A stretch of 64,000 bases of DNA, taken from the IMG/VR virus record IMGVR_UViG_3300025018_000091, one strand, 5' to 3'. Below are positions 1,265-54,535 of the stretch, in pieces. The DNA is from a virus. Its lineage: Duplodnaviria > Caudoviricetes. The notes under the pieces were generated by a model. That model saw nothing but the letters and a program-made list of their open reading frames with translations. It was not told the origin of the DNA and searched no databases. How positions within the stretch are numbered: the stretch's first letter is position 1; each line of letters starts with the position of its first letter. A program made the position numbers and the translations under genes.

Positions 1265-4200
1265 TTAAAGAGATAATGGAGGCATATTTGGCGTAAAATT
1301 GTAACTATGAGCCACAGTGTCGCTTGTACTGCCATCACCAGAGGTATTGTAAGGATTATTATATGTCATTACCAAACGAGCCATCTTACATATAGCAGCC
1401 TCCGTCGCGCTGCCTGGCGACAAGCTCAAATGTATTTCATATACAAAATCAGATGCCCCCTCAGATAATAACGTAGCAATATTGTTTGATGCAAGATACG
1501 TAGCTTCAGTATTTGTAGTTGTCATACCAGTTAAAGCAATATATGTATGCGTAGACACATTATATAGTTGTATCTCTGCAGTATTAGCTACATTTGTAGT
1601 TTCCAATATAACTTCAAGCTTAATTTCCTTTAGTGCTTGACCAATATATTGATCAAATCTAAATGGGAAAGCGCCAATTACTGTTGGAGAAACACTGTCA
1701 TTAGAGAATACACCAGCAGTACCATAAACATAAACTGGATTCTTATAATAAAAGCTAGGATCTAATAATCCATAACCATCTGTCTTGGGAACCCTATTAG
1801 CATCAATAGCACCACGAGAGAAAGCAATAACACCTTCAAGATCATAGATAAACTGATAACTTAAAGCTCCACCAGAACTCATTAATACAGTTCCATAAGG
1901 ACCAGTATCATTAAGTCCAGTACCACCATGCACTATTGGTAATACTCCAGTTACCTCTGTCTCTAAATCTATTAATGTTGTAGGTCCAGCATCTCCAGGT
2001 CCATTAAACACACTAATTAATGATAATATATTTCTAACCTTAGTAGAATCCACATATAATGGTAGATTGTTAAAACCACTCTTCTTTAAATAAACACTAA
2101 TTTGAATCTTAGTACGTAATGTTAGATAGACTGCATCTTCATATAAATTAGTAAAATTAAGAGTTAATAAACCATTTTCATAATCTACAGATACTCCAAT
2201 TTTTCCATCTACGACTACACCAGAATATCCGTCAGAATCTACACCATCTGTATTTGGAGAGAATGACTGAACTGCAACAGAGAATCTAACCTGATCATTA
2301 GTTAATGCATTGCTTTCTACAAAAGAACAATCAGCGAATCTCATTGCAGGGAATCCAAGCGAAGTGACACCTGTTGGTAAATTCGTAGTTCCATCTAATG
2401 TTGTTGCAATAAAATCTTGCAATATATTTAGAGTCTTTTCAGATGTATATAATCCATTAGGTATTTCTAATACTATTGTTCCAACTTCAAAATCTACCTT
2501 ATAGAAAGATCCATCGAGATTCTTTAAGTCTCCCTCTCCTATAATAATGTTATTTGGTGCAAAGATATCTACGATACCAGGATCAAAAGTAGGTTGTTCT
2601 CCATATGTATTACACAATATACCATCTAAAGAACAAGGATGTCTTCCAGAACCAGTTTGTGAAGTAAATACTGTTGGAACTAATTTTGTTTTACTATTAC
2701 TAACGATTAAACTCTCGTTCCATGTTAATTGCTTTTGAACATTAAATGTAACAGGGATAGTGTAGAAATCATGACTTGCAAAATAATCATTATCAGTAAA
2801 TACATCTTGTGGCGGATGAATTTCAGTAGATCTACCAGTTGAAACAGACGAATAGTCATCTGTTCTGTCAATGAATTTTTCAACTTTTAGTCTAAGAACA
2901 TTAAACTTATTTCCAATTTTTGTATATGGATCGGTCGTTGGAGCAGGATATGTTGAATATGGCGATAAAACATAAGGAATACGATCTATATAATTTTGTA
3001 ATAAATATCCATCACTTAAAGTAATTGCAAAATCTCCATCAATATCTGCTCTAAGTATTTGAGCAAGCGTATCACCAGTTAATATTACTTTTCTAATTGT
3101 AATAACGTCAGTGATTCCATCAATAGCAGTTATACTAAATCCGCCCGAATTAGTTAAAGTAGTTGATAATACAACTAATGTATAATCTGATAGTCCAACA
3201 ATAGTTCCAAAGGATATTGAAGAAGATGTAAATTTAGCCAATCTATCATCATTAGGATTTGCTATCAATACACCATCTGTTGCACTAGCAACAACAGTAC
3301 CATATCCATCCACTAATTGAAATTCTATTCCATACTCATCAGAAAATGCTTCTGTGTATGCACTATATCCATTTGTGAAAGTAGTAGTGCTACCGTCTGT
3401 TGTAATAACTGAGTCTTCTGGTAACCCTGTATTTAGATTATAATCTAAATATGACATTAGAAGAGTTAAATCATCTAAATCAACAATACCATCTCCATTT
3501 ACATCTCCCAATATCATTGAACAAAGTTTTGCTTCAGATACACGATAATAAATATCTGGTTTATCTGCATCTAGAGTAAATTTTGCATCAATAAAATCAC
3601 CATTTAAAATATTATATTCTAAATCAGTAACAGATGTATCGTACCTTCCAGTATCTGTTTGGTCGGTAACAATTCTTATCAAAATTTCATCTTTTACAAG
3701 CGTTGCTGAATGTAATTTAGAAGTAAACAAGGCGGTTGCTGGATCAAAAGATTTCTTGTTCTTATCTGATATTGCACCAATTAAAAATGGTTCAGATGCG
3801 GCTTCTAAATTAGCAATATCAATAGAATTTAATAATCTAATTTCTGGAACATATTGCTGACGAGAGTTAACGGACTGTCCAGTTCTTTGATCTGGTATTT
3901 GTGTACTTTCTTGAGTCGTTGCGGATACTACACCCTTATATACATCATTACCTGTAAATTGAAGTCCCTTCATGGAATAATCTATTGTTGCCAAAGATTC
4001 AGAATCAATAGTAGTCTTTGGTACAATGATGCCATGACCAGTATCATATCCTTGTCCATCTGTGATCTTTGCTGCTGAATGACAAATTCTAAACCACAAA
4101 TCTTCTTCTGGAGTATCTACCCACAATGATCCTGTAAAAGTAGTAATTCTTGAATTAGGAACTCTATCAGCACCATTATCAATTAAAATATCGCACTTAT

Positions 4201-5311
4201 TTGCAGAACCAGAACGTTTTAATGAAAAAGCATAATAATTACCTGGTACAAGGATATTACCAGATGCAATTGGACTATTACTAAAAACAAAATCGACTGG
4301 TTGAGGAACAGAATTTCCATAACCATCATCTAATACAATTCCTTGCGCTTTAAGAGTATCATAATTTATACTAATTTGAGCCAATGGAATATTATTAGGA
4401 GCAAAATCAATTGCTAAATTAGGCACAACATCTGATGGACACTCAATACTCGTTTGTAATGGATAAATACTAAGAACTAAATCACCTGTCCATGCCAAAT
4501 CTGTTTCAGCACCTAGTTCTAAGTTACGAACAGATAATAATAAAGATATCTTCTGAATATTATTGGTAGTAGCAATAAACTTTTGTCCAATTTGAGTAGT
4601 AACATCACCATTTAATAATATTTTTTGATCCTTATTTCCCGTATAGATGCCAAGGGTGTCAACGTTATAATATGGTAATGCTTCTTGCAAAGCGACAGAC
4701 AATGAAGTTGATCCATTGAAAAACAAATCTCTAAAAAATAAGTTTGGCTCTATGTCTTGTGCCAACATTATTGGATTTCTTGACAATGTAAGTGGTTTTG
4801 CCTCTCTTATTATTAGTCTACCGCCTAGATTCATAGATAAAGAGGGATCCCCAATAAAATCATTAAATAATAAAACTAAAATATTGGTAAAATGTTTATG
4901 ACTAATTTGAATTTCATTTGTTCTGAATACAAAAGTTTCAAATTGCAAGTTGCTCTCAAAATCCAAACCAATAATAGCGACCTTAATTGTCTTTTTACCA
5001 GCTGCCTTTGAGCCAGTTAGTTCTAACTCTAACTGATTTCCAAAATTACTATCTGCTGGTTGAGAGATATAATAATCTGTATCTGAAGCAGGAATAGCGT
5101 CTCCATCTAAAAATCCAGTTACTAATGAAGAATCAAAAAGAATATTTTGAACTAAAACTTCTGATAGAACACCTGTTCCAATATGATTATTTATTATACC
5201 TGATTGAATGGTATCATTATAGCCCTGTTCTAAAGTTAGATCAGAGTCATCTACTTGTTCGGCATCGAACCAGATATTTTGAATGGCGGATACGGGATTT
5301 CTTTTTGTCAT
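1265..5311 (-). CDS. Large tail/baseplate-associated structural protein with split dockerin/EF-hand-like repeats
   Basis: 1348 aa, beta-rich, directly downstream of baseplate genes; GDVNGDGIVDLDDLTLL and ADIDGDFAITLSDGYLL Ca-loop repeats; fibre-like 'GVLPIVHGGTG' motif near the C-terminus. Confidence 0.6.
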   Translation of the reverse strand: MTKRNPVSAIQNIWFDAEQVDDSDLTLEQGYNDTIQSGIINNHIGTGVLSEVLVQNILFDSSLVTGFLDGDAIPASDTDYYISQPADSNFGNQLELELTGSKAAGKKTIKVAIIGLDFESNLQFETFVFRTNEIQISHKHFTNILVLLFNDFIGDPSLSMNLGGRLIIREAKPLTLSRNPIMLAQDIEPNLFFRDLFFNGSTSLSVALQEALPYYNVDTLGIYTGNKDQKILLNGDVTTQIGQKFIATTNNIQKISLLLSVRNLELGAETDLAWTGDLVLSIYPLQTSIECPSDVVPNLAIDFAPNNIPLAQISINYDTLKAQGIVLDDGYGNSVPQPVDFVFSNSPIASGNILVPGNYYAFSLKRSGSANKCDILIDNGADRVPNSRITTFTGSLWVDTPEEDLWFRICHSAAKITDGQGYDTGHGIIVPKTTIDSESLATIDYSMKGLQFTGNDVYKGVVSATTQESTQIPDQRTGQSVNSRQQYVPEIRLLNSIDIANLEAASEPFLIGAISDKNKKSFDPATALFTSKLHSATLVKDEILIRIVTDQTDTGRYDTSVTDLEYNILNGDFIDAKFTLDADKPDIYYRVSEAKLCSMILGDVNGDGIVDLDDLTLLMSYLDYNLNTGLPEDSVITTDGSTTTFTNGYSAYTEAFSDEYGIEFQLVDGYGTVVASATDGVLIANPNDDRLAKFTSSSISFGTIVGLSDYTLVVLSTTLTNSGGFSITAIDGITDVITIRKVILTGDTLAQILRADIDGDFAITLSDGYLLQNYIDRIPYVLSPYSTYPAPTTDPYTKIGNKFNVLRLKVEKFIDRTDDYSSVSTGRSTEIHPPQDVFTDNDYFASHDFYTIPVTFNVQKQLTWNESLIVSNSKTKLVPTVFTSQTGSGRHPCSLDGILCNTYGEQPTFDPGIVDIFAPNNIIIGEGDLKNLDGSFYKVDFEVGTIVLEIPNGLYTSEKTLNILQDFIATTLDGTTNLPTGVTSLGFPAMRFADCSFVESNALTNDQVRFSVAVQSFSPNTDGVDSDGYSGVVVDGKIGVSVDYENGLLTLNFTNLYEDAVYLTLRTKIQISVYLKKSGFNNLPLYVDSTKVRNILSLISVFNGPGDAGPTTLIDLETEVTGVLPIVHGGTGLNDTGPYGTVLMSSGGALSYQFIYDLEGVIAFSRGAIDANRVPKTDGYGLLDPSFYYKNPVYVYGTAGVFSNDSVSPTVIGAFPFRFDQYIGQALKEIKLEVILETTNVANTAEIQLYNVSTHTYIALTGMTTTNTEATYLASNNIATLLSEGASDFVYEIHLSLSPGSATEAAICKMARLVMTYNNPYNTSGDGSTSDTVAHSYNFTPNMPPLSL

Positions 5312-5327
5312 GTTGATCTCATATAAT

Positions 5328-54199: not shown

Positions 54200-54217
54200 A
54201 TACTTACTTATATCAAG

Positions 54218-54535
54218 TTATCTAATGCCCCACGCCTCAATTCGCACAACCCCAGTTCCTCTAAACCAAATTTTAGAAATTACTCTATTTTCAAACACAA
54301 GACTCTCACTAGAATACGTTGCAGTCATATCTCCATGCAATGTGTCTCCATTAAATGAGTATTCTAATGGTCCATCACTCTCTAGCTGAAATGTTACCGA
54401 ATAAGTTGAAAATGGAATTAAAACTTGACAATTAGTTGGAAAATAACCATCTGTTATTGCAACACTTAATTTGTTGAAATAATTAAAATCTTTTCCGTAA
54501 TCTATTTTTCCATAAGGATTTGAAAAATCTGACAT
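54218..54535 (-). CDS. Small beta-rich protein, probably structural (one DGY)
   Basis: 105 aa, all-beta pattern, SD AAGGTAGG. Confidence 0.5.
   Translation of the reverse strand: MSDFSNPYGKIDYGKDFNYFNKLSVAITDGYFPTNCQVLIPFSTYSVTFQLESDGPLEYSFNGDTLHGDMTATYSSESLVFENRVISKIWFRGTGVVRIEAWGIR

Follow-up and report, generated by a model that had tools for sequence, protein, structure and literature searches.

Why should a single tripeptide recur throughout the outer proteins of a phage tail? The question is raised by the window analysed here, a 64,000-nucleotide stretch of the IMG/VR virus record IMGVR_UViG_3300025018_000091 (Duplodnaviria; Caudoviricetes), which corresponds to bases 48834-112833 of a 138,879-bp virus contig from an aquifer metagenome. 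By the CheckV estimate the contig represents about one third of a genome, and the genomes of relatives reach 350-480 kb. All long open reading frames (ORFs) of the window lie on the minus strand and together form a phage tail module. The tripeptide Asp-Gly-Tyr (DGY) is strongly over-represented in this module, and it is concentrated in the proteins of the virion exterior. A literature search on DGY or Asp-Gly-Tyr in phages and on virion tyrosine glycosylation found no paper describing the motif, which is therefore new to the literature as far as searched.

An ordered tripeptide in excess

DGY counts were compared with the number expected from residue composition (Poisson p) over the window ORFs, 20,740 residues in total, and with 2000 within-protein residue shuffles. 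DGY occurs 40 times in the window against 4.2 expected (p = 1.7e-25) and 89 times on the whole contig against 9.2 (p = 3e-55), an enrichment of 9.5- to 9.7-fold. It ranks first of the 8000 tripeptides in the window, more than 20 orders of magnitude ahead of the runner-up (p ~4e-5). Shuffled windows contained 4.26 ± 2.02 DGY with a maximum of 12, and shuffled contigs at most 21. The excess is also specific to the order of the residues: the five other orderings of D, G and Y, which have identical composition, occur only 5-12 times each on the contig. Near variants stand at chance in the window (DGF 4 vs 3.9, NGY 4 vs 4.6, DGW 1 vs 0.7), as do EGY and DAY, and neither DSY (6 vs 5.3) nor DTY (1 vs 4.7) is enriched.

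The initial annotation had counted the motif by eye, ORF by ORF. Every one of these counts was reproduced, including the single occurrence in a 248-residue protein, and the doubled forms that it listed are real: DGYDGY at 47708-47725, DGYGDGY at 42925-42945 and DGYYADGYYADGY within 51476-51529. Its argument that varied codons point to selection on the protein was borne out as well. The DNA pattern GAYGGNTAY matches the contig 93 times, 89 of them in frame 0, 3 in other sense frames and 1 in antisense, and codons at DGY sites follow genome usage (GAT 88%, TAT 88%, with GGA, GGT, GGC and GGG in their usual proportions). Selection therefore acts at the peptide level rather than on the nucleic acid. 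Nor are hidden repeats behind the count, since 81 of the 89 contig sites have non-redundant contexts. An artefact of composition, internal repeats or a DNA-level signal had in its favour only the prior expectation that hand counts overstate an excess. It is refuted by the shuffles, the order control, the reading frame and the codon usage, and since the excess also holds over a GC range of 30-56% (see below), its probability is negligible.

The DGY excess is confined to outer virion proteins

Grouping the contig proteins by class revealed where the excess lies. Of the 89 copies, 84 fall in proteins of the outer tail, neck, baseplate periphery and fibres, where 5.3 are expected (16-fold); inner tail and baseplate-core proteins have none against 0.7, and the remaining, mostly non-structural, proteins 5 against 3.2. 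The restriction to outer proteins that had been proposed for the window thus extends to the whole contig. The DGY-richest proteins beyond the window are also fibre proteins: an 815-residue protein with ten copies, a 600-residue beta-roll protein with ten, a 401-residue collagen-like fibre with seven and a 230-residue protein with four. In the orthologue sets of the inner proteins, DGY occurs 3 times against ~12.6 expected and the other D/G/Y orderings are at normal levels; this scarcity fits neutrality or mild avoidance. The features of the window are as follows.

463-1209, minus strand: conserved 248-residue protein between the last fibre gene and the core glycosyltransferase gene described below; 1 DGY
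1265-5311, minus strand: distal fibre protein, 1348 residues; 5 DGY (residues 329, 668, 767, 1027, 1178)
5359-12522, minus strand: fibre protein, 2387 residues, with a weak ConA-like lectin (Laminin_G_3) match near the C-terminus; 7 DGY
12522-16619, minus strand: baseplate wedge (gpJ-like), 1365 residues, with a phrog_6 baseplate wedge match at residues 2-263; 1 DGY
19563-21779, minus strand: baseplate-periphery protein, 738 residues; 3 DGY
22167-34266, minus strand: inner tail module (proteins of 696, 1656 and 296 residues, a tape-measure-like protein of 769, proteins of 104 and 218, and a tube-like protein of 234); no DGY
34281-37085, minus strand: contractile tail sheath, 934 residues, with variable insert domains; 3 DGY (residues 147, 419, 515)
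37214-38059, minus strand: protein upstream of the sheath (tail-terminator position), 281 residues; 1 DGY
38938-44829, minus strand: outer tail/fibre protein, 1963 residues; 7 DGY, with DGYGDGY at residues 629-635
46682-48250, minus strand: neck/fibre-like protein, 522 residues; 5 DGY, with DGYDGY at residues 176-181
50316-51215, minus strand: virion protein (adaptor position), 299 residues; 1 DGY
51227-51595, minus strand: 122-residue protein; 5 DGY, four of them in the tandem run DGYYADGYYADGYTIDGY (residues 23-40)
54218-54535, minus strand: 105-residue protein; 1 DGY
55449-63888, minus strand: accessory methyl-deoxysugar/glycosyltransferase cluster (Pfam); no DGY

The absence of DGY from the inner tail and baseplate-core ORFs and from the patatin, sugar and glycosyltransferase ORFs (54583-63888), as initially annotated, was confirmed.

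Several of these families keep the motif in their relatives (uncultured genomes, here G001-G007, and clades A, B and C). Orthologues of the 1348-residue distal fibre, the final structural gene ahead of the core glycosyltransferase, bear DGY in clades A, B and C; those of the 2387-residue fibre (2231-3472 residues) have 3-11 copies each, and those of the 738-residue protein in G003, G004 and G007 have 1-3. The only copy in the wedge protein, at residue 889, falls in a C-terminal extension outside the wedge core. The DGY of the 281-residue protein is kept in 39 of 43 orthologues; this protein has no family match, and its role is assigned by gene position alone. The 299-residue virion protein is conserved in clades B and C, the 248-residue protein has orthologues in G003 and G004, and the G007 orthologue of the 105-residue protein (91 residues) has two copies. 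No family match was found for the 122-residue protein, nor any Pfam match for the 1963-residue protein.

The 522-residue protein carries, in addition to its DGY sites, a CxxC...CxxC motif (residues ~322-339) and three C-terminal HxH motifs (PHTH, GHNH, GHxH), all invariant in 11 orthologues. Similar motifs bind metal in trimeric phage fibre proteins, so this is probably not a simple neck protein but one of the fibre or collar.

DGY is gained and lost as a context-free unit

The sequence around the motif carries almost no information. Over 363 non-redundant DGY sites pooled from this phage and related ones, the information content never exceeds 0.16 bit at any flanking position; K/R are mildly depleted in the vicinity, and position +1 has less P but more V/G/W, with no other trend. 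This rules out a longer motif or a hidden domain; only a minority of sites lie within recognisable fibre motifs such as DGYGN and S-x-DGY-x-L-x-x-x-SG-x-P-x-W. Sequons typically show such flank independence, whereas domain signatures do not.

The coupling between the two outer residues was examined in the orthologue sets of five outer-protein families, counting distinct column-states. Asp before and Tyr after the central Gly are associated with an odds ratio of 6.4 (p = 4e-19), whereas NGY, DGF, EGY, SGY, TGY and DGT give odds ratios of 0.2-1.4. With Phe in place of Tyr the odds ratio for Asp is 0.77, and no DGW columns exist. Within the 522-residue family, replacement of Tyr by Phe comes with loss of the Asp (NGF, SGF, AGF). 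Because Asp couples to Tyr and not to Phe or Trp, the phenol hydroxyl appears to matter: the Tyr hydroxyl seems to be the point of the motif, with Asp tied to it.

Sites also turn over. DGY occupies 59 distinct alignment columns in the five families, against 6-18 for each of the other five orderings. In the 1963-residue family, 29 distinct DGY columns occur among 23 orthologues, and in the 522-residue family DGY ranks first by number of distinct columns, with one DGYHQV segment invariant. The sheath has 17 DGY columns in 53 orthologues, of which one (residue 419) is kept in 47 and 16 are sporadic. The sporadic gains derive from unrelated residues such as TAT, LGT or DAN, and some columns hold D-G fixed with a variable third residue (DGT, DGV, DGY). 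These alignments suggest that DGY has been gained repeatedly at new positions, the behaviour expected of a sequon or a docking motif.

Sites are predicted in strands or at strand starts of the sheath insert domains

To place the sites in three dimensions, the AlphaFold2 model of the sheath was used (predicted local distance difference test, pLDDT, 74.8); its Foldseek matches are the sheaths of phage 812, T4 (gp18), phiKZ and R-pyocin. The model of the 522-residue protein (pLDDT 47) was set aside. All 17 sheath DGY columns map to residues 147-612, the lineage-specific insert domains, and none to the C-terminal core (635-934), the part common with distant sheaths. In known sheath structures the C-terminal core surrounds the tube as an inner layer, with the inserts pointing outward. 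The insert domains that bear DGY are thus likely to be outward-facing here too.

Local pLDDT at the three sites of this sheath is 73-88. D147 closes a loop and G148-Y149 begin a strand; a long strand contains residues 419-421, and residues 515-517 are close to where a strand starts. Thirteen of the 17 columns can be mapped to a residue of the window sheath, the other four being insertions; among these sites of relatives, loop-to-strand junctions predominate, strands or loops account for a few, and a single site falls in a hairpin turn. The initial annotation had predicted exposed beta-turns. On this one usable model the prediction holds only loosely, as the sites are mostly loop-to-strand junctions or strands.

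The excess marks a supergroup of huge phages

The DGY trait is carried by an uncultured huge-phage supergroup, at 7- to 10-fold in two clades and 2- to 3-fold in a third. Across 55 IMG/VR loci (sheaths 49-93% identical, GC 30-48%), a 5- to 15-fold excess was seen wherever enough outer protein was covered. DGY is the top tripeptide in the 100-kb tail modules of the complete relatives G003 (38 vs 5.0) and G004 (47 vs 5.6) and in the clade B genome G007 (7.6-fold). In five clade C genomes the enrichment is 2.2- to 3.4-fold and resides chiefly in two giant distal fibres.

A profile search against 1.84 billion representative proteins reached more remote homologues. Even where the C-terminal core is all that the sheaths have in common, DGY is still in excess (26 vs 2.9, hits 71-110), and eighty more distant loci comprise a strongly enriched group (e.g. 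L107, L109, L115, L121) and a weak group. L109 (record G008, 340 kb) has 10 DGY against 0.86 around its sheath at a GC of 56%; the trait is therefore independent of base composition. The contigs of the far sheath homologues P0088 and P0100 were left out as too short, and a single-protein scan from P0088 found nothing. The signature thus survives deep divergence, down to ~25% sheath identity and from 30 to 56% GC, in huge phages from aquifers, soils, wetlands and sediments.

Two outgroups lack the excess: G020 (87% complete; 8 vs 7.5, rank 3108) and Eggerthella phage LE2-3 (2 vs 3.1). As both encode sizeable tail and fibre proteins, DGY is no general property of such folds. LE2-3 was the single, remote sheath match when the sheath and the core glycosyltransferase were searched by tblastn against 50,697 phage records for cultured relatives; the glycosyltransferase gave only two weak, unrelated glycosyltransferase matches. 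Among the listed sequencing runs that contain the phage there is no RNA run.

A core glycosyltransferase, not the neighbouring sugar cluster, accompanies the motif

Two sets of glycosyltransferase (GT) genes flank the structural module. The initial annotation had linked DGY to the one inside the window, the methyl-deoxysugar/GT cluster at 55449-63888, which encodes an oxidoreductase, a dTDP-glucose 4,6-dehydratase-like protein, a C-methyltransferase, a cupin, a GT4, an FkbM methyltransferase, a further GT4 and a methyltransferase. Beyond it lie an 815-residue GT2-GT4 protein and then two collagen-like fibres. A role as the dedicated writer of a DGY sequon has some appeal for this cluster together with the GT2-GT4 protein, as it looks complete and sits in the late region beside the virion genes. 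Co-occurrence of motif and cluster among relatives had been set beforehand as the test of this link, and the link failed it. Orthologues of the 815-residue GT, the C-methyltransferase and the 367-residue GT4 are absent from G001-G004, three of which are rated 100% complete, and DGY is undiminished in these genomes; among G001-G005, only G005 has part of the cluster (two of the three genes checked). A cluster that complete relatives lack while retaining the excess is not the partner of DGY, and a sequon specific to it is very improbable.

The collagen-like fibres that the cluster abuts would be its more natural target. Several collagen-like fibre proteins, encoded at contig 114334-118443 (L004:3334-7443) and 7396-10876 (L001), carry Thr-rich G-x-T repeats (GAT, TGP and GPT enriched 3- to 7-fold), and two of them lie next to the cluster. 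By analogy with BclA, such repeats are the expected glycosylation target, and the arrangement here is BclA-like, which suggests that the Thr-rich repeats are a second, separate glycosylation target, served by the methyl-sugar cluster.

The other set adjoins the distal fibres at the opposite end of the module.

Contig 47428-48555, just left of the window: core GT4, 375 residues, generic GT4/GT-B match

Beside this gene are a GT2 (228 residues, contig 46427-47113), a second GT2 (275 residues, 43538-44365) and a dTDP-glucose 4,6-dehydratase-like gene (42578-43534); the GT4 and the adjacent GT2 span contig 46427-48555 (L003:11427-13555). The core GT4 is present in G001-G005 (76-40% identical). Of 27 further records, 23 contain it in full length, among them all 7 with a completeness of 90% or more. 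In every enriched genome the gene comes directly after the distal fibre genes, behind a conserved triplet of wedge protein, 2300-3470-residue fibre and 940-1770-residue fibre. The clade B version is a tandem GT4-GT4 fusion of ~750 residues whose N-terminal half matches Pfam GT4-conflict. As in known phage virion glycosylation, GT and sugar-nucleotide genes here adjoin structural genes, an arrangement preserved across clades A, B and C. Neither the core GT4 nor any GT2 was found in the outgroups G020 and LE2-3, which lack the DGY excess. The GT4 synteny keeps glycosylation in play as a candidate modification.

Competing explanations for the motif

On balance the data speak for a motif that is recognised in its own right at the particle surface. 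Covalent modification of the Tyr hydroxyl at a DGY sequon, most plausibly glycosylation by the core GT4 set, is the explanation that we favour, although tentatively. DGY would then act as a short linear signal for recognition where the tail, neck, baseplate periphery and fibres face the solvent. The Tyr hydroxyl would be modified in the infected cell, before or during assembly, with Asp as part of the recognition or as a local base and Gly providing backbone access. The writer would be a phage glycosyltransferase, the best candidate being the clade-core GT4 with its GT2 and nucleoside diphosphate (NDP)-sugar dehydratase neighbours. We infer the attachment, its sugar nature, Tyr as the acceptor and the GT4 as the writer. 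The full statement, that a globally distributed supergroup marks its tail exterior, at many places in each outer protein, with an Asp-Gly-Tyr code on whose Tyr hydroxyl the core GT4 writes, is on the doubtful side.

Several observations weigh against Tyr glycosylation. The modification is a prediction from sequence. GT4, distal fibres and DGY excess lie on the same branch and all define the same supergroup, so their co-occurrence is close to one evolutionary event and is confounded by phylogeny. Among the GT4-bearing clades, DGY density ranges from 2- to 10-fold, and clade C, with the GT4 and paralogues, reaches just 2- to 3-fold. The core GT4 itself is a generic GT-B protein with no match to known protein glycosyltransferases; its best PDB match is an unnamed glycosyltransferase (E = 2.7e-7), and its NCBIfam matches fall far under the cut-offs. 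In the sheath, two of the three sites fall within confidently predicted beta-strands and not in flexible loops, an unusual place for an enzyme to reach once the protein has folded, and the S-layer Tyr O-glycosylation that is known needs a membrane oligosaccharyltransferase, not a cytoplasmic GT (PMC2943079). A search of five genomes gave no match to the Asp/Asn beta-hydroxylase PF05118 and one sub-threshold match, in one genome, to the sulfotransferase PF13469. The lack of a hydroxylase and of a convincing sulfotransferase does not in itself point to a sugar. The major head protein (contig 122328-123341, phrog_2522) has no DGY, but this zero is uninformative because the expectation is only 0.04.

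Two other explanations share much of the evidence. In the one, an exposed Asp-x-Tyr is a non-covalent docking or ligand micro-site, bound by a decoration or whisker protein, an assembly chaperone or the head of a collagen-like fibre, or else by a small ligand such as a metal ion or a host-envelope sugar, and would give the tail many weak, multivalent contacts. It fits the same statistics as a sequon (order-specific, context-free, outer-only, with turnover at kept density). In the beta-strand of the sheath model, Asp and Tyr would form one surface patch, since strand residues i and i+2 face the same side, and the several collagen-like fibres and lectin-fold (Laminin_G_3) proteins of the genome are possible partners. 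However, the would-be partner fibres and small proteins are themselves DGY-rich (seven copies in the 401-residue fibre, five in the 122-residue protein), no candidate reader emerged, a specific protein interface could hardly rest on three residues in such varied structural contexts, and simple sugar stacking would not leave DGW and DGF unenriched. We regard docking, with the partners and multivalent contacts just named, as unlikely. In the other explanation DGY has no reader: an Asp-Tyr pair across Gly stabilises strand starts, beta-bulges or hairpins, for example for particle durability in groundwater. The placement of sites in or at the start of predicted strands, the deep conservation of some of them (sheath residue 419, the invariant DGYHQV), the columns where D-G stays fixed while Tyr varies, and the loss of Asp where Phe replaces Tyr, as expected if Asp serves the Tyr hydroxyl, are all in line with it. 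Most site positions are not conserved, however, the equally beta-rich inner tail proteins lack DGY, and the outgroups G020 and LE2-3 have no excess in their own large tail and fibre proteins. We know of no general structural rule, such as a turn propensity, that favours DGY tenfold over NGY or DGF. A structural unit of this kind is slightly less likely than docking.

Neighbouring genes

A gene for a TubZ/PhuZ-like tubulin (Pfam Tubulin and TubZ-like_C) at contig 40152-41507 (L003:5152-6507), a few genes past the GT cluster, is kept in clades A, B and C. Two GIY-YIG/NUMOD3 homing-endonuclease genes (contig 2332-3048 and 41877-42611) hold one DGY apiece and thus make up part of the non-structural DGY count. 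One of them is inserted beside the core sugar/GT genes, where an ORF for a 326-residue treble-clef zinc-finger protein also lies. The 248-residue protein and a 335-residue protein of the GT4 neighbourhood gave no family match and no atlas lead.

A patatin-like phospholipase gene (54583-55452, minus strand) stands at the junction of the virion module and the accessory sugar cluster. Small plus-strand ORFs of 230, 139, 62, 101 and 229 residues, free of DGY, are embedded in the otherwise minus-strand structural module at 48934-49626 and 51670-53340.

Comparison with known systems

A context-free tripeptide that is enriched 10- to 16-fold solely on outer virion proteins implies a reader or writer that has not yet been described. 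If DGY directs a modification of Tyr, it would add to the known sequons and probably reveal a novel class of protein glycosyltransferase; tail surfaces, besides capsids, would be chemically coated, with a bearing on adsorption, particle survival and grazing or immune recognition. If the core GT4 writes on Tyr, DGY would be the first sequon in any virus to be directed at tyrosine, and the enzyme would belong to a new cytoplasmic system of protein Tyr-O-glycosylation.

The closest precedent comes from mycobacteriophages, whose virions are reportedly glycosylated by phage-encoded glycosyltransferases, a modification that Freeman and colleagues are said to have shown by mass spectrometry in 2023. 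The two systems share phage-encoded cytoplasmic GTs beside structural genes, many copies of the putative acceptors on the virion surface and a proposed surface role. The mycobacteriophage glycans, however, are reportedly carried by Ser/Thr-rich extensions at the C-termini of capsid and tail-tube subunits; here an ordered DGY, known from sequence alone, is scattered in folded outer tail and fibre domains, and the tube has none.

Short sequons are well established in the Bacteroidota (D-(S/T)-(A/I/L/V/M/T)), for Campylobacter PglB (D/E-x-N-x-S/T) and in eukaryotes (N-x-S/T). DGY resembles them as an ordered motif of three to five residues held above composition at the protein level, with an acidic residue before the proposed acceptor, little context, and sites on surface proteins that are gained and lost while density is kept. 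It does not follow the Bacteroidota pattern, as its middle residue is Gly and neither DSY nor DTY is enriched in the window. The known sequons also use Ser, Thr or Asn, lipid-linked donors and the periplasm or endoplasmic reticulum, whereas Tyr is the sole hydroxyl residue of DGY and phage virion proteins fold in the cytoplasm.

In chloroviruses the major capsid protein is glycosylated by virus-encoded enzymes at atypical sequons. As is proposed here, these viruses have their own cytoplasmic machinery and non-canonical sites on virion surface proteins; they differ in that the glycans are N-linked to Asn of a eukaryotic-virus capsid protein, and to our knowledge no comparable proteome-wide tripeptide signature has been reported for them.

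Tyr O-glycosylation is found on the S-layers of Paenibacillus alvei and Thermoanaerobacter, where it demonstrates that stable glycan-Tyr linkages are possible in prokaryotes on highly repeated surface arrays, much as DGY would require (PMC2943079). The S-layer systems differ in that they use few specific Tyr residues per protein, have no described DGY consensus and depend on transfer by a membrane O-oligosaccharyltransferase during secretion (PMC2943079).

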